Origin: Rotaria socialis
Taxonomy: Eukaryota
Assembly: GCA_905331295.1 (NCBI GenBank)
Contig: CAJNYD010000044.1
Location: 124,001 to 188,000, forward strand
Length of the DNA stretch: 64,000 bases
Reading direction: 5' to 3'
Below the pieces are notes generated by a model that was not told the origin of the DNA, searched no databases, and saw nothing but the letters and a program-made list of their open reading frames with translations. A program made the position numbers and the translations under genes. This document shows, in pieces, positions 1,367-62,800 of the stretch; within the stretch, counting starts at the first letter, position 1; each line of letters opens with the position of its first letter.

Positions 1367-3347
1367 TGAGAAAAATATCGATTATAATGCCGCATTTCTT
1401 CGCTGAAATCATAAAGTCAACTATAGCTTTGGGTTTATCGTGAAACAGCCATCAGAACTTTTGGAAAATAATAGTTTGTCTCCAATCGAGAGATTCTTTA
1501 TGTAGTATGCTAAAGACGAAAATTGGAATTAGTTAGAATATTCTCCTTACTAGAGGGATACTGTGGAATTTGCTTTATAAAATGCAATAGTCAGTCCTTG
1601 TTCAAGTGTGACTTCTGAATGAAAGTCCCTGAAAAGTTTATTTTTCCGCAATGGCTCACTCCGTTTTCGTGAATATCTATATATCTATATACGTGTATAT
1701 ATATAGATATTGGATATCGTTGATCAATTCTTTTCATATTTGTATATTATCCACAACTATTGGAACTTATAGCTTCTGCCACTTTGGCTGTTAGACTATT
1801 CAATTATTTTGTGTAATTTTCTGTTTTCAGAAAGATACAGATGCATCAACACCACGATGTATTTTCTGGTCTGCATGGTTATTTATCAAAATTAGCACAC
1901 TGTTCTCGAAAAGGAAAAAATAACGCTACATTAATATAAGAGCTTGGCTTGAGTATAGGGTTCGTTGAAGAAAATTTGTATTAGAGTTTGCACGAGATAT
2001 AATACTCTTGTATGATTGTTATGAGATAATAAACGATACTACGTTAAAGAGAGCGCAGTAAAATAAACATGCAGAATAGCAACAATATAGATTTATCTTC
2101 TAATTAAAAATATTTCAGAAGCAAATCAGTTTTGTTTTCGTGTAAGTATTCATGTTTATTTTTATCCAATCAGAGTCAATCTCGTGAGCTTTTAGTAAGG
2201 CTCATCAGAGAAATCTAAACTATTGCTACGCATTGCAGCGTCACAAGTGGAATATCTATTGACTGGATATGAAGAAAAATTCATACCCATATGTTTGTAA
2301 GCATTATTTCCAAAGAAATCGAGAGTTATGGTAACGATTGACTAGCGCATCTTGCGAAGGTCTGCTCTATTGAACTAATAAAAGAAATATTCTAGCTTAT
2401 GTTAATGGTTCTATCAGCTTTTTTCTATAACTCTCGTCTCTAGAACACAACATGGAGAACCCATGAACCATAAAAAATAAGGCTTCATTTCCCTTAGAAT
2501 GTGATGCAGTTTTTCACAAGAACTCTGAATCTATAGTTGGTTGAATAATTTAAGGTACTCTAAAAATTTTATTTAGCTTATGTATTATCATCGGATTAAG
2601 CCGGTAGGATCCCATGGGAACATCCGAATAACAGTATTTTTCATCTAAACAAACATTTACATTTGTATGCTAATATTTAACCTACCAAAATATATAATAG
2701 AAGAAAAATGTTCGACTTGATTTGAATGATTTTCATATCTCATTGAGTACTGAAATCAAATAAATTTCAATGATTCATTTCCTTGTAATCATTCATTGAA
2801 TACAGACAGTAATTAAACTTCATTCTTGAAGTGAAAAAAATTTGAACGTGATTAGAAAGATTGAAAATACGATGGAAAATAAAGAACGAGCAGTTTTCCT
2901 TCATACAAAAAGGGTATCGAAGTGAATGTTTGTAAGCTTCTTTTATTTACTTTTATTTTAAATAAAACAATCAAATAGAGTATTTTTTTTTCTTTCGCTT
3001 GCTCTTGATTCAATAACTAATGCTTCACTGGTAGCTCACATTTTTTTTAGTATTCTGTTACTTGCTCCTCGAATGACGAACATGTAAATCAGAATCAAAA
3101 AATTATTTTACTAAAACTCGTTGAAACAGCTAATTTTTTACTAAGACATACGTAACTGTTGTTATCTTTTGCTATTCTGACAAAAGCTATGAAAAAAACA
3201 TGCCAAGAAACATTTAATTCTTGTACTGTTCACTTTTCTACGAAGTTGAGTCAATAAATTTTGATTTTTTCATTTCATATGCCTTATCAACAGGAACACG
3301 AATAAGAAGAAAAAAAAACACTGTAACAAAATACAATAAAATACGCA

Positions 3348-5898
3348 ATGGTCGATCGCATCGAAACAAGGTAAATATTATATAGATATGTTTAGAATTC
3401 AATTATTTTCAAAAAATGTCCTGTTCAATTTTTATAGATCATATGCAAACAAGATTGATCTTCGCCTTCAAACATTAATTACATCTCCGTATGCACAACA
3501 ACAATTGCAACTTGCTGGTTTGGTATATAAAATAACCTGATAAAATTTTTAGTTCATTTTTTTCTTGCAGAACTTCAAAAATTATCTTCATACATTTCTT
3601 TTCCAAATATCTATCAAATGTTTTTGCTTCAATATTTAGATAAATCATCGTGGACAAATAGTTGCATCCAATGCCTATATTCGTAGTCTAGCACAACGAA
3701 AATGTCAACAACAAGATCATGAAGCAATAGCGAAAGATATTCTTCTACAGTTTGTTATTTTAATGATTCATTTCTAGTGCTTATTAATATAGATTTTAGA
3801 ACATTAAAAATTGATCAAAATAATCGACGAGGTCGTCGCCATCAGTTTGAAATTGCTACACGACGTGCTGTAAATAGTAATTTTGACGTGAGCTCAATGA
3901 AATCTGCAATATCATGAAGATCGTGCTTTTCTTTTCGTTCATAAAGGCTATTAATAAACACTATCGAAAGCAATCATATGGACGTAAAAAATCCCGTGAA
4001 AAAAGTGCTCCTGGCTATCTTTCGGTGAGAATCAAATATGATTCATTATCACACTCTAATAGACTTATTTCAGAAAGCAGAAAATGAGGTTAAACAACGT
4101 ACACGAGTGACTTCTGCTCACAAAAGAATATTAAAAACAGAGAACGATACAGAAGAATCTTCTGATCAACAAAATCGTATTGAATCAGTAAGTCGCTGAT
4201 ATTATTCGATTTTTATTCAAGGCCGCTTTTCTTCAGTTGGATAAATCATATGTACTTTCTTTGGAACGTCAAACGTGCAATTTAAATATGTCTTATGGAT
4301 TAAAGACGACTAACAAAACTAAACAAATTAACCGTGATGAAATTGTTGTCATGCAACAGCACAGCACTGGCGAAAATGTAGTTGTTTTCAGAGGACTTTT
4401 AAACGAAGGCGGTAACTATATCAATTACACCAATTATTAGACATTGTTTCGTTTTGTCTATAGAATCCTTTTCATTTAAATCACAACGTCGACCAACATC
4501 TCCACTTTCATTGGCTTTCTATGCTAAAGGATTTATTGACAGTTTGGTGAATGATTGTTGTGAATTTAAATATGGTAGAAGAAATCAACACATCAATGAA
4601 CATAGTAAATTTTTTGTTGAACGAGTTCGAAAAGCTAGTCCCTGTGAGAAGTAAGTTGAATACTTGTTAGAAAAGACAAAATTACCTTATAAAAACATGA
4701 TAAATTTTACTAGTTGTCGAAGAAAATATATTCAAAGAGAAATAACACCAACTGCTGATGGTGCACCATCGACTACTGTAAGTATAATCTCTATTATGCG
4801 AAATTCAAAGAACTAATCAAATAAACACATAAATATACGATTCAAGTTAAGTGACCTATTTCGGTAATCGTTTATATTTACAATTTATCTACAATAATTT
4901 TCAAAAAAAGAATATTTGTCTACAATAAGGCTTTTTCATTGTACACATCAACTTTTTTTCCATTTAATTTAAGATACCAAAGGAGCATTCTCCAATTGTA
5001 CTTCAATCTTTGTTAATATCAACATCTGAGCCCATAAGTAAAATCAACACATTCATCCAGATAGAAGAAAAAACGATCTATTCTCATATTTTTCTAGTCG
5101 AAAATCCAAAACTTGATTTAGCTGAAAAATCAAATTTAAACTTTAAAGAACATAATGGGAATAAAAAAGTGAACTATCACGTTTTTCTTGAATGTTAACG
5201 ATCTATCGTGTTTTTTTTATAGGCAACAAAATATAGAAAACACCGTGATACTATTAACAGTACTAATGAGAATGGTAAGCACTCATTTAAACGCCTCAAT
5301 TTTATAAATATTTGATCTTTTGTTACAGATGACAAGGATAAAAAGGTTAAGCAACATCAGTAAATGTAATTTTTTATTTTTCTGATTAAAATAGGCAACA
5401 GATGAACAAACGAATAAGCAACAATTTTCCAAAGTTTCTTCTCACCAACAAATAACTAGAGGTAAAAATCGTTCGCATGAAAAATGCTTGCTCTAAACAT
5501 ATTTTTACAGAAAAAGCAGCATCAGTGGACTTTGGTCTTCTAGCGTATACACTTCTTCAAGAAAGAAAGTCACCATTACCAAAACCAAGAATGGCAAAAA
5601 AACCCAGCAATATATCGATTATCAAAGGAAATTCAACCAGAAAAAAGACGCAACTTATACCCAGTAAGTATTTTTTGGGAAACAAATTGGCTTATCAATA
5701 AAAATATTTATCTATATAGAAGAGAACACATCAGCTACGCCATCACAAGGAAAAGAAATTATGCAAGCATGGGTTAACGAAACAGACTATATTCATTGGG
5801 ATCCACACAATTCACCTCTTAGTGCGAGTACAATCGATGCGGACACTCTTTCTCAAACGTCTGTAACGCATGTACAACAACGTATGTTTCCTAGCTAA
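3348..5898 (+). CDS. Multi-exon gene, uncharacterised hydrophilic protein
   Basis: GT-AG exons join into MVDRIETR|SYANKIDLRLQTLITSPYAQQQLQLA|..NHRGQIVASNAYIRSLAQRKCQQQDHE..|AINKHYRKQSYGRKKSREKSAPGYLS|KAENEVKQR.. and end in ..THVQQRMFPS*. No family recognised. Some internal boundaries are uncertain. Confidence 0.6.
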
Positions 5899-21312: not shown

Positions 21313-21948
21313 TTATTTTCTTTTTACTTCTACAAGTGTTGTTTTTATATCAAGAATTTTGTCAACAACATCACATTCAATTATTTCAAGTAGAACAGGT
21401 TGTCCTAATTTGAATACAAAATTATGATAAACAGGTGGTATTGTATCACGATGAAATGATGCATTGAAACGACTGTGAATTAGACAAGCTAAAAAATACT
21501 CAATAGAAAATCTTTTTTTTTGTCAAAATGAAGAAACCTTTACCTATATGTTTCTTTCCAAGTTTTGATACAATCGCGCGAACGCGTCTCCCACGCTCAG
21601 GTACAAATAACACAAAACTAAGTTTCACAGGCACCCATAATGTTGGTTCATCTTGAAATGTTTGTCCGACATTGGACAATAGATGAATCTTACCAATGGC
21701 CAGTAGAAAACCATTTAATCTTGAAAATAATTAAATTGTAATAAAAAAAAAATTTTTACATAATATTTAAAAACGTACTTTTTTGTTATTTCATTTGAAC
21801 TTTCTTCAAGTATTCGTTTAATACTTGATTTTACTTTTCCTATTTGACTTGGTGGTACTGGCACAAGAACTTTTTCACATTTATGTTCTAAACATGATTC
21901 TTTATCATTAATAAGCGGAAGAATGTCACTAATTTTACATAAATTCAT
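21313..21948 (-). CDS. POLR1F: RNA polymerase I subunit RPA43
   Basis: Three exons: LINDKESCL..VPPSQIGKVKSSIKRIL..|LNGFLLAIGKIHLL..DEPTLWVPVKLSFVLFVPERGRRVRAIVSKLGKKHI|ACLIHSRFNASF, matching RPA43 (FVIFCP..G....G.V.K....HIGCLVHGCFNASI). Confidence 0.85.
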
Positions 21949-22071: not shown

Positions 22072-22347
22072 TTAATGTGTTGTTACACGTTGAAAACCAA
22101 TGAGTTTATCCGGATCTTGATAAAGCCAGGCATCGGCTGATAATGATTGAATATTTTCGCGTATTTTTTGTAAATGTTGAGTATGTAATTCTTTTTCTGT
22201 TTCTGAGCGATAAAATTGTGTTGCATTTTCTAATTCAATGGTATTTAATATCATCGCATTATTATTCGTTGTAGTCGTTGTTGCCATTGTTGGCTCGACC
22301 GTAGGAACATGTGGAGATTGAAATAATGCTTTGCGACTGGCATCCAT
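22072..22347 (-). CDS. ANAPC16: Anaphase-promoting complex subunit 16
   Basis: MDASRKALFQ...HTQHLQKIRENIQSLSADAWLYQDPDKLIGF matches APC16 RKALF and LEADEWRFKPIEQLLGF. The ATG directly follows a tttttcAG acceptor. Confidence 0.8.
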   Translation of the reverse strand: MDASRKALFQSPHVPTVEPTMATTTTTNNNAMILNTIELENATQFYRSETEKELHTQHLQKIRENIQSLSADAWLYQDPDKLIGFQRVTTH

Positions 22348-23214: not shown

Positions 23215-23980
23215 TCAAGCAAGAATTTTCGACCGTTCACGATATGCAGTCCACCAAATAAGTCCAAATACGATAACAGCAAAAAATTCACTCGGCAGCC
23301 ATGGACCATAACTTGCTCCCTATAAATAAATAAATTTCTTAAAAATCACAACATTTTTTGTCTCATACCGGATGGCTTAATTCAACTTGACCAAATGGTT
23401 TAACTGCTTTGATAGCATCATCCGTTCGAGCCTACGAATAGATATTCACGATTTTAATCGATTTATTATTCTACAAATAACTTACTTTACGTAAAGTTGA
23501 ATAAGCTTCATCATCATATAATTTAACTATTGTAGAACCTTTCGCTAAGTGTTTATGAGTTGAAGTCGCTACACTAACCTAAAAAATGAATAAAGAAGGC
23601 TGATTTCTGTTTTGTTTTATCGATTCGCTTCATACATAATATTTTCCAGGCGATGAAACTGATTGAGCACAAGGAATAACATGTCCATTAATATCAGCAT
23701 ACAGAGTGCCTGGCTAAAAAAGATGTAGGACTTGTTGTTTTGAAAACGAAAAAATAATCACAAACTTGTTTTCCATTTTTGCATTTAACACTTATTTCAA
23801 GTTGAGCAGCTGATTCAGCTGTAAGACGAGCATCTTTCGTTGAATATGAATTAACTGTGAATTGTGGAGATTCACAATTTTCACCTGAAACAAAATAAAT
23901 TATCGAATAAATAAAGTAACCTTCTTTTTACCTCTGGCAACGGTGAATAGCACGAAAACGGCAAAAATAATTGACTTCAT
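23215..23980 (-). CDS. SSR4: Translocon-associated protein subunit delta (TRAP-delta)
   Basis: Six exons: signal peptide, ENCESP..SYSTKDA, LYADINGH, LYDDEAYSTLRKA, HPGASYGPWLPSEFFAVIVFGLIWWTAYRERSKILA*. Confidence 0.93.
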
Positions 23981-24314
23981 GGAAAAATATTGAATCAGCT
24001 TGTGAAAAAATACCAGCTACTGTTTGTTTGATGTGGCAAATATCGATGATAAAGCACATACAGTATTTCATTGGAGCATGTCTACTTATCAAAAATCAAA
24101 ATCGATTTTTACGATAGATGGCTTTGATTTGATCTCTTGTATTTTATTTGAAAAAAAATAATTAAAAAAGAAAGATTATTTTATTTAATTTTTAGTTGAA
24201 TCACAAGTGAGGACGGAGAAATAATTTTGAATGATCGATTTGCATGAACCAATCGATGATTTCCACAATAGAAGTACCTTTGCTTTCTATTTTTTTGTAC
24301 ATGACAGTCTAATA

Positions 24315-51520: not shown

Positions 51521-53160
51521 ATCTATATCTATATATATATATATATATATGACTAGTATAAATAACAAACCGATCACGAAATACGACAAATAATCAGTAT
51601 ACGAGTGTATATATTCTAATGAATGTCTGGAACAAATGTATATGAGAAACAAGACCTTTCACTCTTCTCTTTCTATTATATTGAACGGGAGCGGAAAAGA
51701 AAACACATGGACAAAAGTATCGAACAAAATACAGATACAATGATCATTGTTTTTTTCCTCTTTATGTTGATTTTATACGAAACAGACAAATGGATCATAT
51801 CAGTGCAGAGAGAGAAAGCATTGATCTCATCGAACGTATTCAGGCTATCCTCTTAGGAACTACATAGTAAATGTTTTATTCTATGATTCATTTATATTGA
51901 CCAACGGCAAAAATACTTTCGAATCAAAATATACAGTTAAGATCAATTCACAATAGAACCATTTTGTTAAATATTTTTGATACATTATTAAACGATAGGA
52001 TCTGCTATCGATTGTATTATCGAATTTAGAAAATTGCATTTAAGATTTTGTATTTTATAAGGTTCTCTATTCACTAATTAACATTAATAGAAAAAAGGTT
52101 AGAACTCTGATATTGCGTACTTAGTGAGGGAATTCATCGAATCAACCATGAAATGACTTATTAGCTAATGTTATTCAAGAATATAATGAGGTTCTACTTT
52201 GAATCTCATGAACAATTTATAATATATACTCGAAATATGGTTAAGTGATATTCCAGCAAACAATATTTTGTAAATAATTGATTATGTAAACCATAATTCT
52301 CTATAGACCTTTATGTAGTAGATCTAGATTCTTATTTCATTAGAAATAACATGTCAAACTGTAGCGCCCGTTTTCTTTTTAATCAATTTACACTTTTTGT
52401 CCTAATGAAAAGACTAAGGAGTACACACTACAATGAACAATAATCAAAACGTTCTTCTCTCTGTTCTTCTGTTATAATAGCCAAGAGGCATAATTACAAA
52501 AAAATCAGACATTATGGTTCAACATATTTTCCACATCCACACCCAAAAAAAGTCATTCGATATAATGAAGGGCGATCGGGAATACCGACGCTTGTGTTCA
52601 GAAAAATCATTTCGGACTATTCTTCTGATCAGAAAACCAGGTATCGGGAGGCTTGAAAAGGCAATGCAATAGGTGTTTTATTTGTATATAATTTCGATTC
52701 GAAAGCATTTTATTCATTTCCTTTTTATAATAATATGAACATAGACAGATGAGTTAATTCTATAAAAAGCAACCACTAACATATTTCCTTCTAAATGTGC
52801 GGGTCGATGAATTCAGTCCCGGAAATTATAAAACTAAAGAATCAAATACTTGTCTCTGTCAATCTTCACAGGAAAAAGTTAGACATCTTTGATTGCCGTT
52901 TTTAAGATTCAAATGAGAGAGAGAGAAAAAAAATAAAACAAAATAAAACAAAACAAAACAGATGAGTGTGTTTTCTACACACGCCTTGCTCGAAGTTTTT
53001 TTTTAATGCTAATATATTTTTTTCTCAGTAAAAGGACAAGAAATACACGATAGATTAGATAGTGAACCAAAGAAAAAAAGGACAAAAAAAAAAGAAAATG
53101 ACATTCTGTTTTAATTAGTTGTTCGCATTTCAAAGTGAAAATAGAATGAACAAAAGACGT

Positions 53161-53197
53161 ACACACACGCGCACACACACACACACACACACACACA
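53161..53197. repeat. (CA)n microsatellite in the presumed striatin 3' UTR
   Basis: acacacacgcgcacacacacacacacacacacacaca. Confidence 0.9.
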
Positions 53198-53431
53198 TGT
53201 TGATGTTTTTATGTACACCAAAAAAAAAAACGAGGAAAAAAAGAATAAATTTGCATGTAAAGAAATTTGTGTTTTTTATAAAAACAGAATTCGTGTGACA
53301 AAATTACAGATGATGGTTTTTGTTTTATATCTGGTACACCAAGGAGACAGAAAAGAAATGATAAAGATGACAACACAAAACTAGAGACTCTGCATGCTAA
53401 AAAGAAGAAGAGACATCAAGATTTTTATTAT

Positions 53432-55806
53432 TTAAGCATAAATTTTCGCTATTGAATCTGCTCCAACACTAGCCATATAGGGTTTGGATAAATGAAATGC
53501 AACGTCATGTATAGACTCGTCATCCTTCTTTTGATGAGCTGTGAATTCTTGTATACAATTTTTCGTTTCGAAATTCCATAAACGTATTGAACGGTCATGA
53601 CCTTAAAAAAAAAAGAACAAGTTGTCTTTTGTATATCAAATAGATAATCGTTTTTTTTCTTTCTTACTGCCAGATAGCAGACATGTCTGTTGTGGATCGA
53701 TTGCTAATGCAGTAACAGTTTCTAGATGAGCTACCATTGAATGTATCATTCGTCCTGTAAAGAAGAAAACCCCATCATTTAGACAATGTCAAAAAACTAA
53801 ATAAATTATAGGTTCTTGATTACCAGAATTACTATCGAAATATCGTATCTTTTTATCATCGTGTGCAGTTATGATAATTGGTTGCGATGGATGGCTTATT
53901 ACTCTATTTACTCGATAATTTGCATCTGCTGTTGAATTATCGTTAGCTAATTGCGTTACAACTTTTCCAGTTTCTGCGTCGAAAATCATTGTTTTCAATG
54001 AATCATACGTGGCAACAAATTGATTTGTATCTTGCATTATCCAATCGATAGACAATGGAATGCCATCGTCTATTAAAATTATTTTTAGAAAACCATTGCT
54101 TCATTGATGAAAATAACTCACTAGTAAATGTTGATTGTAATGATTGACTCAAATTTGAATCCCATAATCGTACAGATCCATCCGATGAACATGATAATAA
54201 TTTTTGACCGGATATTGCTAATTGCCAAACAGCATCTGTATGACCCTCCAAGACTTTGCATAGAACATTTGAATCTTAAAAACGAAAAACAAAATTAATT
54301 ATTCATATAGAAACTTTTTTAAATTATGAATTCACCATAGGCATCATAAGGATCAACATCTGAATTCGGAATATTCCATACAGATATAATTGAATCAAGA
54401 CCACCACTATAAAACTGTTCTCCGGACGGATTCATTGCCACGCACAAGACAGGACCTCTATATCAATTTAAATTAATTCGATTAGCTCACGTCATTTTTC
54501 ATTTATTAAGCTTACGTATGCCGCCGGAAAGTATAGATGGGTTCGAGATCTTGTGTTGTCGATGCTGATCTAAATTAGAAAGAATAGATTTGACATTTCA
54601 GGGAAATTTTCTTCTTACTTTCTTAGAACAGCAGCTTTTTCAAGATTCCATAATTTAAGTGTACGATCTTCAGATCCAGTTATAACAACTGATTCAACTG
54701 GATGAAATGTAACGCAATGTATACCATCCAAATGGCTAAATAAAATATTTTTAATTTGGTTTCAAATTATAGAAATTATAGAAAAAAAATCAAAATACCT
54801 TCGTAAGACGTATTTAACATTCCATGTCTTTCGAAAATCAGATGAATCTGTTGCTGTTGTCTAATAGAGGAAAAGAAATGATAGAATGAATTGTCAGCAA
54901 AAGAAAAGATCAAGTCATACATCATCTTGTGGTTCATTATCATTCAAAACTGTAACACGTGCTAATTCATCAAGACCATCCATAGCATTATCGCCCATGA
55001 AATTTTTACTATTTCGAAACATGATTGTGTCAACCATGCCACGATTAACTATTAAACCGAAAAATATGAAAGTTCATCTCATGTTTTTTTTTCTTCTAAT
55101 AAGTAATGAACAAACTTTGTTCATCTGTTGAAAATGCTCGCGGATCAGAAGATGTATCGTCATTTCCATTATCGAATAAATTATTTCGAATCGATGATGA
55201 ATTACTTGTATGATGTTGATGTTGTTTACCGTAACGTTCACGTTTATATTCTTCTTTCAATCGATTTAATCGAGATTGATCAACATCCCAATCAGCACTA
55301 TTATTTTCTAATGAAAACAATAAAAATATATTAGATGCGTAAAATTATATTATTATTTATTTACCATTGGGTTTCATTTGATTTACATTTGAAGAAGCAG
55401 CTGATTCGCCAGAAAGAAAATCGAATTCATGTAGAGCTACTTCTTCACCGTCGAGATCATTAAGTGTGTCAAGACCTGAATTATGATTCGTTGTATTACC
55501 ATTATTCGATTTAATCATGATGCGGCTAGAATCAATATCATCATCACTAGGAAAAACAAAACAAATATTTTTCTTTCGTATTTCATGATTGAATAAATTT
55601 ACCTTGAATCTTCATCAGGCTGATCTTCTTTGAGAAAGACAAGTGATGCGAGAACTGATTTACTTAAATCGCTTGTGGCATTTTTAACAATATTTGGAAT
55701 GATTCTTTTAGTAAAGGAGAATATTTTGTAAATTAATAAATTCGCCTAGATTTTTCTTTTTACCTTTTTGATTCGTTTGACGGTTTAATGTCACCATTTA
55801 AACTGA

Positions 55807-55839
<33 letters not shown>

Positions 55840-56703
55840 TTGCATTGAAATTCGTTTCACTTTTAATTCCAAGTAGTTTCTTAACAGCTGTCGAACGTAT
55901 ATCAATTATTGTATCAACATAACCAATTTCTTTCAAATATCTAATAAGAGGAAAAAAGAGAAAGCCATTTTGTTTTGGAATTGAATTTACTAAATAACAT
56001 ACTGCCGAAGTAATTGACGGCCTTGTTTAAATGATACGCTATTATCACCATAACCTAAATTTGCACCATCTTTATTTTCATCTAAAACAAAATCAATTAA
56101 ATTCAACAAAATTTCTAAAACAAAAAATTTTACCATCATCATAATGTGGTGCATCATTCGATGTTGATTTATGATCTTCTACTGGAGCGTTTTCACTTCC
56201 ATATTTTAGTTTATTGAATTTTAATCTAAATAATTAAAATTACATGAGACAATGTGTATGTTTTTTCTCTCATGAGGCGAATATATATCCTTTGAGAATT
56301 ATCAAACAGAAAAAGAGTCGTCATTATTCTTAATTATTTTTCTTTTAGAATTTTTTACCTTTCTTGTTTTAATGCATATTCAAGCATTTTAATGCGTCTA
56401 ACAAGTGCATTCTTTAGATTTTCTTGTCCTTGTCGTTCACCTTGTAGAAAAGCAATACGTGCCTATAAAAAAAGCAAAATGAAAAATATGCGTTTCCAAG
56501 TGTAGATTTTATTTTACTTGAAATTCAGCTCGTTCCGTTTCCCACTGTTGTCGTTCTATTTCAAATCTAGTCCATTCGTGTTGAAGAAAATGAAGGATAC
56601 CAGGCACTGTATATAATGGACGTTGGGCATCGACATTGGCCATTGCCGATGCTGCTGCTTGAGAATCTGTCTGATAGGATATTTGCGTTTCACTACCGTC
56701 CAT
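53432..56703 (-). CDS. STRN: Striatin (STRIPAK scaffold, WD40 C-terminus)
   Basis: YTVPGILHFLQHEWTRFEIERQQWETERAEFQ|ARIAFLQGERQGQENLK..LVRRIKMLEYALKQER, GRQLLRQYLKEIGY, RKTWNVKYVLRSHLDG, GHTDAVW, ..ASVGADSIAKIYA*. Confidence 0.97.
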
Positions 56704-56802
56704 TCGATTTCATATCGATGTAGGAAAAAAAACGAAAAAAGGAAAAAAATAAATCTGAAATAATAAAAATGATAAACAATATTTAGCTTTACAACAATTT
56801 AT

Positions 56803-57334
56803 TTAACATTGAAAACTTCGATAGGTTTGAATTTCATCAACAATTTTCTGACATTCATCATCATCTAGTTTACTATCTAAAGATGGAATTAATGTTTTAG
56901 CTTCCACGGCTTGTTGTGGACAAAGATTAGCAAGTAATGCAGCTTCAAATTTATGTAAACCCGACGATGGATTTGTTGATCCCATGCCATTAGGTTGATC
57001 TTTTGGAAAAAGTAAATTTCGAACAGCACCGATGGCTTCTTTTGTTTTAAATTTACTGAATCGTTCACAATAAGCAACTGTATCATTAAATGCTTCTGAT
57101 GATGTTATTTCATCATCGTCATCATCAAGACCATTCGCATTGGAATTTTGCTGTCGACGTTGCTCAAGCATAAGTAATACTTCTGATATCATCATTGGTT
57201 CAGCTTTATCGAATTCTTTTGGAAATTTAAGTTGTGCAGCATCTTCATCATCCTAGTTAATTAAAAGAATGACATGAAACATAGGATCTTTCTTTTTAAT
57301 GAGCTGATAGACATACTTGATTTGCAAGTGCCAT
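56803..57334 (-). CDS. POLR2D: RNA polymerase II subunit RPB4
   Basis: Two exons: MALANQ|DDEDAAQLKFPKEFDKAEPMMISEVLLMLEQR..RFSKFK..LHKFEAALLANLCP...EAKTLIPSL..IQTYRSFQC*. Confidence 0.96.
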
Positions 57335-59862
57335 TGTTACCTAGTAGGTTGAAATTGAAAGTGAGACTTAAATAGGCAACAATAAACAAAATAAACAATA
57401 AATGTGTAACAAGAGAAAGGAAAGGGAAACCAATTCTTGCTTACAGCATATTGGTATTATTTGGATAGACAATGACTGACAAGCAATCAAAATGTAAATA
57501 CAAAGATTTTAAATTTAATTGAAGTGTTTCAAAGAGAAAAATATTTATTTCTAGAAAAAATAAGTTTATTTTCTTTCAAATACATGTCGTGCGACATCTT
57601 TTTATTAAGAATAGTACACTACAAAATTGGTGTTGAGCGACATCTTGAGCTTGTCAGAATAGAATAGTAGGATGTGATCTGTGTAATTATGTATGATCGA
57701 TATAGAACATTTTGCGTACGAAACTGAACGACATTAGGGTATGATTGAATCAGGATATATTTCGAGTTCTTCTCGGTAAACTTCTATATATATATATATA
57801 TATATATACATAACACAAGGACATGGTTAATGGGGAGAAATTTCTAAGTTGTTTACTTACTTATACCCGAAAAAATAACATTTTAACCCCTCTGAATCCG
57901 AACGACCTGAGAGCATTTTTTCCTTCAATATATCAATTGAATTTTAGTGTGTCGTTTCCTCAATCTTTTACTTCGATTTATTCTATTAAAAATGCAAAAT
58001 CTAGACATATCATTATTTGCTTGGCACTTCAACGCATACAAGAAAAAAAAACAAGAACATAATCTTATTATTATTATTATGATAATCATTATTTTTGTTT
58101 TCATGTGATATTACCCACCAATTTTACTTGTTTGTTCAAAGAAGTAATTGAAGTCAAACATTGTTAACACATCGTTGTTCATAATCTATTTGATGAATAG
58201 AGAATGTATTTTTGAAAGAAAAATATATTTCTATAGTTTTTCTTTAATTGAAAACCAATATAAATAATTAATTTGATAGATACCAGATTAGAATATATCG
58301 ATGGAAAATGGCGCAGCTAAACGATTGAACTACATTAACGTACATAGTAGTACCAGAAAAATGATTCGAGTGCGTTAATCTCGTGTTGAAGTTATTCTAA
58401 ACTACATTCAAGTAGCGACGTAAATCGTATCAGGTTTTGATAGACTGAGCCTTGAAACACAACATTCATAATGGCGATTCCATTATTGCTGCGTAACAGA
58501 TGAAAAAGAATATTCTAGTCCTAATGTATAGGTTACAATTTCACAATTGTATTAGTAACATTATATGTAGCACAAAATGGCGTAGAATAGTTCGAAATGA
58601 CCTCAATTAATAAAAAAACATGTCGCTACTCCTTAGTGATTTACACTGCATTTGTTTAGATGTTATTATAAACAGTCGTTCAATGATTCTCGTTAGAATA
58701 GAATAGAGAACAGATATTTAATTTATTGTGGTGTTTGGCACTTAAGCAGTGAACGTTTTTTCTTATCAGTATTAATAACACAATGATATTATTATAGATA
58801 GATTTTTATTCGATGCATTTTTTTTCATTAAAATTCTAGCAATGTGAAGCTCTATGCTAAAAAAACAGATGATAGATAAAAATCGATAAATTCCTTTGTT
58901 TCTTTTCTCTGTCACTGTTTAATCAAAATAGAACCATTCAATTATCAAACATGTTGCTTAAATTGATATGGTCTATGTAACTCATTATTCTAAATTGATA
59001 ATTAAAGATATGTTTTTCTTTTTATTAGAAAATCCTATAGTTAATAATACTTTAGATGGCAATCTTTGTTCAGCTCACATTCTTTAAACAGTTTAATTAT
59101 TTTTGTTGAAAATATATTCACTTTATTCTGTTTCTGACGCGCATGCGCTCTCTTTTGCAGAGTTAAAGAAACGAACGAAAGCAAGGAAAGAAGAAAAAAA
59201 AACGAAAGGAAATACAACTGAAGTAGTAGTGGTGATAAACACATAATAACGAGAAAGAAGAGAGCCACAGGTGAGATAGGTCAACAACATGGTCATGATC
59301 GTCAAAATACTCTTCATGTAATTGGCCTATTTATGAATCTTACAAACAAGAACGAACATAGATTTACACAAGAGAAACATCGAAGCATACACACACGTAC
59401 AGAAACAGAGAAGAAAAGAAACACGAGTTTTATGAGAAGAGAAATAAAGGAAAACTTGACTCTGTGCATATTCTTGATTTTGGCTGATATAGTTTTTTTT
59501 TCAAAGTTACAAGTCAAAGAAGAAGAAGAAGAAGAAAATAAAAGTAGAAAAATGAACATACATATTTTTACAGCACAGAAATAAATAATAATAAGACATG
59601 ATCTGTTGTTTTATATGATGCGTTTGCTTTCTAAAAACTTTCTACTCTGCACATATAGATACGAGAATAGTTAGACTTTGTCCGGCTATCAAAATGTCTT
59701 CTGCCAAGCAGCTAATAATATACGGGGAAAGTATTTGTACTAACCAGATCAGAATTCTAGATCATCAACCGGCCTGATTTACTCTCGAAAAGGAAACAAA
59801 AAGAAGGCACACGCACACACTGTTAAAACAGAACATCGAGCGAAAATGTTGCAAGATCTATT

Positions 59863-62800
59863 TTATGATCGAGGATGATGATGATGCATAGTTTTATTTT
59901 GTTGTATTGGTGTTGTTGGCGCTGGTGAAATTCGTTGATTTGATCCACTATTAACAATGGATGGAGAATTTGGTCGTCGTGGTATTGGAGTCATTTTTGA
60001 TGAAATATTACTAGCTACATTTTTTATAACAACATTAGGAGATATATTTTCCATTGGTTCATCTTCTTCAAGATCATCACTATTTGAACCAACATCATCA
60101 TTTTCCTACGAATAGAAAAGTTTATTTTATATGCTTATGAATTTAAAAATTATAATAAATTATAATTACCATTTCTGGATACAATTCAACGGCTTTATCA
60201 AGTAGCGATCGAGCACTTTGAGTTCTTTCAATAAAATAACTACGAAAATTAAGAAATTTCGATTGATATGATTAGATCTAAATTTTTAAGTTTTTACCCC
60301 TGTGACATATCATTGCTAGTAACGGGTCCTTGCGATGGATAATATGGATAATTTGACGGTACATTATTATATGATCGCTAAATGAAAGTAAAGAAAGACT
60401 TAGATAAAATAAAAACAAAAAAGCTCTTCATTACTTCTAATTGTTCATGTAACCAACGAACAGCTTGTGACCAACGTTGTTTTATATCAGCATCTGTTTT
60501 TAATATATGATGAGCTTTTGGACAACTAGAATAATCATAAAACTTAAATTATTTTTTTCTTTCAAAAAGCTTAATAATTTTACTTTGAGAATAATTGTAC
60601 AAATGTTTTGATGCAATGATATGCTTTTTTCTGATAAGTTGATTTTGCTTTTGCGAACATATCGAATAAACTTTGAGGGGTGGATTCATATCCACTATTA
60701 GTAGTAGCTGTTGTTGTTGTTGTTGCTGATGTCAATGAATTATTAACATTGGACATGGGAATTCCTTTAATTACATATAATAATCGAATTTCTTGCCAAG
60801 AATCTTCAATGGTAAGTATCATATAGAGTACATCAAGATGTCCACGAAAATCATATGTATGATACATAGCAAGCTAAAACAAAAAAGTGTATATAAAAAA
60901 GAGAAAAAGCAAATTTTCTGTTTTACCAAAGTCATAATTTCATTGAGAACAATGGACGTTATGTCAGGATTTTCCCAAACAAGAAAACGAAGTAGACGAA
61001 GCGATTCTTCGCATGAACCTGAATCTTCAATGATTTTCTTTATAAATACATCTCGTTTAAAGATTATATCAGCCATGTGTTCGGGCATGGAACATATTGG
61101 ACTATTTTCATGTGTATAATATGGATTCGGTAAGAGATCCGTCTCGAGCTAAAATGATCAAAACAAAGTAGTAAAATACTTTTCTTTTTCTTTTTAATTT
61201 GATAATAATTTACTTGACGTGGTTTGCAATAGATGGAAATATCAAAGCAACGAATCAATGTAGAAAGTATAACAAATAATTTAGCGGGTTCTCCATATCG
61301 TGGTAATGTTGAACATGATGATGATGTATTATCATCATTCGCCAAATTAACAAATAGTGTTGGAACGTTCAGACGTATTAATTGTTCACACTGAAACACA
61401 AAATTCAATTACAATCAGTTTTACTTAACGACACCAAAAGGTAGGAACATCATCAAATTCTTGTTTTTTCCTATTTTTCAACAACAAGAGAAAGTCTATG
61501 CATGAATTAGAACTAAGCCAATGAGGAGAGCTATTCAGAAAGTTTCTGTCAGCTTTTCCTTTCTGTTTTTGTTCTAAACTTACCTCATGACGACCTAGTG
61601 ATGAATAATTAACGAAGAATTGAAAATATTGCGTAAGCATTTTAACATTATCTGGCATTTCTTTTTTAAGCAAACGTAAAACATGATTAAGAATAGATTC
61701 TTCAACTGTTAAATAATTCTTAATATCCTCTAAATAAATACAAAGTCGGTGTTAGGCAAACGAACTATGAATAATGAGAATAATTTACCTGTTGGGATAT
61801 TCGTTATTTCTTCGTCTTGACGAGAATGATTGGCAAGAGCAACCAGCATTTTACCAAATGCATTTCGAATCTAATTACATCAAAATAGAAGATAAATATA
61901 AAAACAACTATGAAAGAGTAGTTTACTTCAGCTGATGTACAATCAATAAGATATTCTTGAAAACGAGTTGGATATTTAAATAAAACTTCTTCAGCTAAAT
62001 AATATCGAGCTTTACGTGACCATCGAATACAATGTACGATTAATTCTGTCCAATCAATTGCCGGGCCACTATAAAAAAAACCAAACAAGACATTCTACTA
62101 TGAACAACAAAAGGCGCAAATTTATCAATTGAAACAAACCGTAACGCTTTCTTTGTTCGCCATCCAACAGAAAAAAGAAATTTCGTAGCTATTTGTACAC
62201 TGACTAAAGCTAATTCTTCAATCGTTTCAATCGTCTAGTCAAAGAAAACAAAAACATGAAACTAAATTTTAAACCAAAAAAATAGAAGAGATCTTCATAC
62301 ATTCGTGACCGGTGTTTTATCTCCATGTTGTTGTTGATGGAAACCAATAATAATTTGTATATTACTTTGTATTAGTCGTTTCATAAAATGAAAATATTCA
62401 GGACTGAAATGTATTCGATTGTGGAGAAATTTTATATTTTGTTTTCGAACACTACGTTGAACAGATAATGGCATACGTTGTGTTTGATCATCTATTAAAA
62501 ATAGAATTATGTAGACAACAAAACAAAAACTAAATCGACATACAAAGCTGTAATTGTGTTAAAGCGTTTACAAGACTATTGTCTGGATTAGATTCATCAT
62601 TAGAGATTTTTTCATAGAATAATATATATGCATTCCACCATCGACGTTGTCTACAAACAAAAAAGAATTGGACAATTAATAACAGAAGAAATTAACAAGA
62701 AAATGAATAAATACCGTTTCATAACTGGCTGATCGAATGATTGTGCTGGATAATCTCCACCAAAACATTGCGATCGAAGTTCTTCGTCTTCGTCCATTTT

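Follow-up and report, generated by a model that had tools for sequence, protein, structure and literature searches.

The window analysed here, the whole stretch of 64,000 nt, consists of AT-rich DNA of animal type with short introns. On its minus strand, the gene for RPB4 (POLR2D) is followed head to tail by a gene for striatin, with 99 bp between the RPB4 stop codon and the striatin ATG (56802-56704). RNA evidence comes from six of the eleven runs covering the stretch (X1, X2, X3, X4, X6 and X7), all in the form of assembled contigs, the pieces of which were listed longest first (the best 32 of 117 for X1-X4, and the best 22 of 55 for X1, X4, X6 and X7). The coding features are as follows.

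57334-56803, minus strand: RPB4/POLR2D coding sequence, 155 amino acids, Pfam RNA_pol_Rpb4 with E 2e-26 (ATG at 57334; stop codon TAA at 56805-56803)
57316-57253, minus strand: the sole intron of RPB4, 64 nt, with the RNA joint present in X1, X2 and X4
56754-56704, minus strand: 5' UTR of striatin (51 nt) following the leader, from an X1 contig
56703-53432, minus strand: striatin coding sequence, about 750 amino acids, with numerous short introns, from Pfam and RNA joints

RPB4 exon 2 encodes a protein sequence with 100% identity to a record from Rotaria socialis; for striatin exon 1, identity is 100% to records of R. socialis and 98% to those of R. magnacalcarata, and the window accordingly belongs to a bdelloid rotifer, probably R. 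socialis. The striatin product, which starts at ATG 56703, matches the Pfam family Striatin (E 1.2e-12) and contains WD40 repeats. The RNA contigs yield at least 15 intron joints, of 49-133 nt, at least 14 of these in striatin, and since both striatin and RPB4 are found spliced, the contigs behave as RNA.

Upstream of RPB4, some 2.4 kb from it as measured between coding sequences, lies a ubiquitin hydrolase gene that is not proposed to belong to the unit described here. In one related locus (L005), a 343-codon ORF resembling a seven-transmembrane receptor (2376-3407, plus strand) is located between these two genes; in the respective interval of the window, no listed frame matches this ORF. Contigs from several runs align partly to window positions 57870-58200, with long unrelated extensions, which suggests a repeat or a mobile-element fragment upstream of RPB4.

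The spacer between the two coding sequences contains three elements of interest.

56803-56798, minus strand: polyadenylation signal AATAAA, sharing bases with the stop codon of RPB4
56784-56755, minus strand: U-rich intercistronic stretch, 27-30 nt, with the acceptor at its end
56760-56755, minus strand: TTTCAG trans-splice acceptor (AG at 56756-56755), the leader joining at 56754

The sequence-only reading of this DNA had placed these elements correctly, namely the 99 bp spacer, the AATAAA on the RPB4 stop, a GTAAAG at 56792 and the TTTCAG ending at 56755. The acceptor is located 48 nt from the RPB4 stop, and the spacer includes only two AG dinucleotides. A TTYAG within 50 nt is present in 3963 of 20000 spacer shuffles, whereas the acceptor together with the stop-overlapping AATAAA appears in 6 of 20000; in the window, TAAATAAA follows 43 of the 3743 TAA triplets. 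From its sequence, the acceptor is no more than what is expected by chance, and it is the RNA leader joint and the conservation that settle the matter. No notable RNA structure was detected (z of 1.00 for the spacer, -0.23 for the striatin 5' UTR and -1.25 for the RPB4 5' UTR), no Rfam family was found within 52000-60000, and no branch point could be placed in the junction.

The rotifer spliced leader is joined to striatin at 56754. In two of the six runs examined (X1 and X4), which come from two studies, contigs carry non-genomic loose ends behind 56756, of 15 nt in X1 and 17 nt in X4, and these ends, along with the shared AG, correspond to the 3'-terminal 19 nt of the rotifer leader, 23 nt long, given in Table 1 of PMC3795323. 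The X1 contig spans 56756-56517 without gaps and without a single letter differing from the window; X1 is identical to the window in the striatin pieces listed, and X4 differs at about 2% of the coding letters. The leader is absent from the window and from the related loci (the best match has 4 mismatches in 17), so that a nearby cis exon is ruled out as its source. What is seen on striatin is the general rotifer leader (19 nt, the first 4 nt lying outside the contigs), and no second, operon-dedicated leader was seen at the junction. Among the pieces listed, those of X2, X3, X6 and X7 are uninformative at the junction as regards both leader and poly(A) ends: their contigs end at or near the acceptor or fall short of it (X3 is of low depth), and one X7 contig ends exactly at the AG, which is compatible with either the leader or the genome. 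Contig depth, a measure unable to rank genes, favours RPB4 over striatin by a wide margin in X1 and X4 and does not do so in X2. Since trans-splicing affects over half of all bdelloid transcripts according to PMC1925144, the leader alone does not imply an operon.

Two 3' ends of the RPB4 transcripts were found.

56785-56782, minus strand: proximal RPB4 poly(A) site, seen as loose poly(T) ends on the plus strand
56757-56756, minus strand: distal RPB4 poly(A) site, which abuts the acceptor with zero intercistronic distance (X4)

The proximal site follows the AATAAA at 13-16 nt, precedes the acceptor and the first striatin base by 27-30 nt, and is represented by at least three contigs in X4 and at least one in X1, the latter of low depth and with mismatches. 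The distal end is represented by one 76-nt X4 contig (17 T followed by 56756-56814; contig depth 99.5), in which the tail begins after C56757 or A56756, the G of the AG being missing; none was found among the X1 pieces listed. Downstream, the sense strand is rich in U, which means that this end does not stem from internal priming on a run of A in the genome. The AATAAA-linked proximal end thus appears in at least four contigs from two runs, compared with one for the abutting end, counts from which, for contigs, proportions cannot be derived. Poly(A) reads had been anticipated near 56775; the tails do lie in the spacer, with the main site, at 56785-56782, about 10 nt off. The distance from the upstream 3' end to the acceptor, on the same strand, is 0-30 nt, below the 100 nt taken as the limit for eukaryotic operons resolved by a spliced leader. 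The RPB4 ends at 56785-56782 and at 56756 show transcription extending to the acceptor, and read-through is accordingly required for either product. Among the pieces listed for the six runs (the best 32 of 117 and 22 of 55), no contig crosses the acceptor with 31 nt to either side. X1 pieces of 31-42 nt over the U tract, with 3-5 mismatches each, were not counted as bridging.

The tight junction is conserved among bdelloids. A scan of metagenome contigs produced eight loci (L001-L008), one of which (L003) stops within RPB4 and is not part of the junction counts. In all seven informative loci, striatin directly follows RPB4, with 70-108 nt from the stop to the ATG (for L002, whose contig ends soon afterwards, the start of striatin was identified from its pattern) and 29-37 nt from the stop to a YAG acceptor, compared with 48 nt in the window. 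The AATAAA overlaps the stop codon in six of the seven, the exception being L007, and hence in seven of the eight junctions including that of the window; the part of the spacer before the acceptor varies in both length and sequence. L004-L006 represent one lineage and L002 and L008 are 97% alike, so that, together with the window, about five lineages are sampled. The AATAAA in the relatives ends 24-32 nt before the end of the acceptor; cleavage would therefore fall almost on the acceptor itself.

Accession and locus-tag numbers, which say nothing of spacing, point to adjacency of the two genes in seven of nine named bdelloid taxa. In Adineta vaga, the RPB4 and striatin locus tags are consecutive (I4U23_030179/030178), and for 24 of the 38 RPB4 accessions of the CAF series, there is a striatin accession within 20 numbers: four of four in each of R. 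socialis, R. magnacalcarata, R. sordida, Rotaria sp. Silwood1, A. ricciae and D. carnosus, and none of seven in each of A. steineri and Rotaria sp. Silwood2. A tree built from 17 bdelloid striatins sets the Rotaria and Adineta copies linked to RPB4 apart from a second copy; Didymodactylos and L007 form long branches of unsure placement. The striatins retrieved for A. steineri and Silwood2 are the second copy only, so the zero counts for these two taxa are not negatives for the RPB4-linked copy. Synteny across rotifers had been named as a check on the operon, and the RPB4-striatin order holds across bdelloids, both in the metagenome loci and in the named taxa.

The second striatin copy, about 85% identical, is expressed (X1 and X7 contigs aligned on window positions 56517-56645). 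An X1 contig from this copy extends upstream of where the start codon lies by some 200 nt, compared with the 51-nt UTR of the RPB4-linked copy, and in A. vaga, the second copy is located on another chromosome. It offers a natural comparison for the exit of a gene from an operon.

The locus L007 merits separate consideration. This 3452-nt contig is intron-free and encompasses RPB4 (156 amino acids), with the conserved motif of the RPB4 5' UTR, and a complete striatin (762 amino acids); the 108-nt spacer between them is unspliced and contains a TTTCAG acceptor 30 nt past the stop, with no AATAAA. Because mature RPB4 and striatin mRNAs share only the AG, assembly of this contig needed junction-crossing reads. 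The bridge belongs to an assembly from another species, not to a single molecule, and DNA or pre-mRNA reads could be its source.

Upstream of RPB4, two further features bear on the question of where transcription starts.

57492-57432, minus strand: conserved, promoter-like non-coding block, some 60 nt long, found in an alignment of the window with L001-L004
57427-57335, minus strand: RPB4 5' UTR, unspliced, starting in a pyrimidine tract, from X1 and X4 contigs

The 16-nt core of the block occurs once in the window, the next best matches having 3 mismatches, and the block is likely to be the shared promoter of RPB4 and striatin. The X1 and X4 contigs are continuous to 57427 and end in the pyrimidine tract that follows the conserved block (block and tract together, 57410-57492); among the X1 and X4 pieces listed, there is no loose end at 57427 that would indicate a leader on RPB4. 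These contig ends, which cannot prove a start site, give a weak hint that the RPB4 transcript starts near 57427. The pyrimidine tract at the RPB4 5' end presumably resembles a TCT/5'-TOP start, and the 5' UTR carries a strongly conserved, repeat-like motif, TTATTGTT. A TAG at 57343 was considered as an acceptor for RPB4 and rejected, as it is not conserved and the contigs pass through it unspliced.

Taken together, these observations establish leader addition at 56754, two RPB4 3' ends and a conserved tight junction. A leader joined 48 bases past the RPB4 stop, combined with RPB4 ends just before or at the splice site, makes one shared transcript likely, and RPB4 and striatin are, with high probability, co-transcribed from one promoter upstream of RPB4, the precursor being cut in two at the junction. 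The junction itself is real, conserved and resolved by the leader; what we infer from it is the common start of transcription and the sequence of steps. The dicistronic operon that had been proposed on reading the DNA is thus supported by the leader at 56754, by the poly(A) in the spacer and by synteny.

Two routes from the precursor to the mRNAs can be envisaged. In the first, the cleavage and polyadenylation machinery would cut 13-16 nt past the stop-overlapping AATAAA, giving an RPB4 mRNA with a 3' UTR of 18-21 nt and an uncapped downstream piece in which the 27-30 nt before the AG would hold the branch point, the U tract and the AG; this piece would have to be trans-spliced immediately or else be degraded. 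In the second, trans-splicing would come first, on the intact precursor, freeing a capped striatin mRNA and leaving an RPB4 RNA that ends at the acceptor, which would be debranched and polyadenylated there, yielding the distal end, or alternatively re-cut at the proximal site, upstream of the branch. The missing G would fit the 2-nt slip of oligo(dT) described for Ciona. Under such a scheme, striatin output would equal a fraction of RPB4 transcription.

The second route has a competitor that is itself compatible with the operon and concerns this step only, namely that co-transcription is real and the distal RPB4 end results from ordinary cleavage at the CA of the acceptor, a cut by which the acceptor would be lost and either mRNA would exclude the other. 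Cleavage commonly occurs at CA, and the tail does follow C56757 or A56756, with the G of the AG missing. However, the nearest AATAAA is 42 nt from the distal site, with none within 40 nt, an independent cut that happens to coincide with a splice junction is unlikely, and ends 2 nt short, of just this kind, occur in Ciona cDNAs. For the origin of the distal end, ordinary cleavage is accordingly a serious possibility, albeit one that we rather doubt.

A more radical departure from the operon would be a striatin promoter inside RPB4 coding exon 2, with a short outron and ordinary monocistronic trans-splicing, either alone or along with read-through, in a hybrid operon. Such an arrangement is in line with the trans-splicing of most bdelloid mRNAs, with the lack of a bridging contig among the pieces listed for the six runs, with the use of the canonical AATAAA of RPB4 and with a mild bump of synonymous conservation about 150-205 nt before the RPB4 stop. 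A promoter plus outron would, however, need constrained coding sequence in about five lineages, and the bump is not significant: the synonymous sites of RPB4 exon 2 show no significant extra constraint (six sequences, low power), and the synonymous identity of the best 20-codon stretch (0.91) is reached by 332-581 of 3000 shuffles. Nor is there a copy of the upstream promoter block inside the RPB4 coding region, and the indirect sequence checks gave no sign of an independent striatin promoter. Moreover, an internal promoter leaves unexplained both the RPB4 poly(A) at the acceptor and the spliced two-gene contig L007, and is considered improbable. Finally, the 38-nt cis intron from GTAAAG at 56792 to the AG at 56755, which had been raised as a caveat, or any cis joining of RPB4 to striatin, can be dismissed with near certainty: the GTAAAG does exist in the window, but no 38-nt joint is found among the pieces listed for the six runs, a GT[AG] donor before the acceptor is missing in all seven related junctions, the shortest of the at least 15 RNA-supported introns is 49 nt, and the acceptor takes the leader.

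Returning to the shared transcript of RPB4 and striatin, a further conserved element is found at the striatin start.

56713-56693, minus strand: out-of-frame uORF of 6 codons, overlapping the striatin start, conserved

The uORF is kept, in the same frame, in all eight junctions, inside a conserved block that contains ATCGAT; its ATG is at -10 in the window and six loci, and at -13, in the same frame, in L007. A short hairpin is possible at the uORF, no better than in shuffled sequences. The overlapping uORF is predicted to further damp striatin translation.

Comparison with the known operon systems shows that the RPB4-striatin junction is not of the SL2 type and works like those of tunicates and the SL1-type operons of C. 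elegans. The SL2-type operons resemble it in that upstream polyadenylation is followed by downstream trans-splicing, and differ in having about 100 nt of intercistronic sequence and a dedicated leader (PMC7986045), in contrast to the 0-30 nt and the general leader in the rotifer. The SL1-type operons share with it a general leader, an AATAAA, an intercistronic sequence that is short or absent, and possible competition between 3'-end formation and trans-splicing, mutually exclusive mRNAs having been proposed (PMC1488885, PMC12582326); they are, however, a minority class in a nematode that also has the dedicated SL2, whereas no second leader was seen in the rotifer.

The intercistron-less operons of Ciona intestinalis are similar in the use of one general leader, in mostly comprising two genes, in the upstream poly(A) abutting the acceptor and in the existence of spliced dicistronic cDNAs, to which the spliced two-gene contig L007 can be compared (PMC1488885). 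In the account of Satou et al. 2006 (PMC1488885), the abutting ends are sometimes 2-6 nt short, which is ascribed to trimming or to the 2-nt oligo(dT) slip, trans-splicing itself is suggested to make the upstream ends, and read-through to the acceptor is argued to be necessary for either product. The same source gives 16 of 18 Ciona operons as having no signal at 40 nt or less from the poly(A) site, whereas in RPB4-striatin, there is a canonical AATAAA on the stop and a second end 27-30 nt upstream, which is seen in more contigs. In Oikopleura dioica, the intercistronic distance of 23-30 nt is close to the 27-30 nt in the rotifer, there is a single leader, and the upstream gene need not be trans-spliced (PMC1488885, PMC7986045); unlike the rotifer, which keeps the AATAAA in seven of eight junctions, the upstream cistrons are described in these sources as lacking it. 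The junction thus mixes Oikopleura spacing, a Ciona-like abutting end and an SL1-type AATAAA.

The closest relatives of rotifers with described operons are the chaetognaths (Paraspadella gotoi, PMC12460157; Spadella, PMC2481426), in which there is likewise no operon-specific leader and the genes are housekeeping ones, while the operons, unlike the present one, are defined by a distance below 250 bp together with leader reads. In these chaetognath papers, rotifer operons are given as not determined or none described, and a 2021 paper has them as unreported. Our literature search, which covered the main text of openly accessible papers, found no operon of rotifer host genes (cf. PMC12582326, PMC8557442). 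Monogonont rotifers appear to be without the leader (PMC1925144), which, combined with base-level RNA evidence in a bdelloid, makes the origin of operons bracketable within rotifers.

The present junction provides such base-level evidence in a phylum for which no operon was found reported and which is close to the chaetognaths. With regard to mobile elements, two papers on the bdelloid Athena/Terminon retroelements reportedly describe multi-ORF transcripts, possibly with leader splicing. The presence of two upstream 3' ends at one junction opens an old problem to experiment: whether the end of the upstream mRNA is a product of trans-splicing itself, and whether both mRNAs can arise from a single precursor. 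In practical terms, bdelloid gene models, promoter calls and the design of knock-ins and knock-downs must allow for shared transcripts. More speculatively, and with doubts that outweigh our confidence, bdelloids might possess a widespread, undescribed system of operons with ultra-short junctions, in which a single junction gives both Oikopleura-like 3' ends (27-30 nt upstream) and Ciona-like ones made by trans-splicing, the race between the two and the conserved uORF would set the striatin:RPB4 dosage, and the gene pair would have been locked since before the split of Rotaria, Adineta and Didymodactylos.

Two other places in the window deserve mention. Another tight same-strand junction, known from sequence only, is located at 22072-21948 on the minus strand, with a stop codon at 22072, A-rich AATAAA-like runs and, a short distance ahead of an ATG near 21948, a TAG acceptor in a U-rich context; neither of the flanking ORFs has a Pfam match. 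At 23980-24231, a TRAP-delta gene (minus strand; Pfam) and a plus-strand gene are arranged head to head with their starts about 250 bp apart, a configuration that is likely to reflect a bidirectional promoter.
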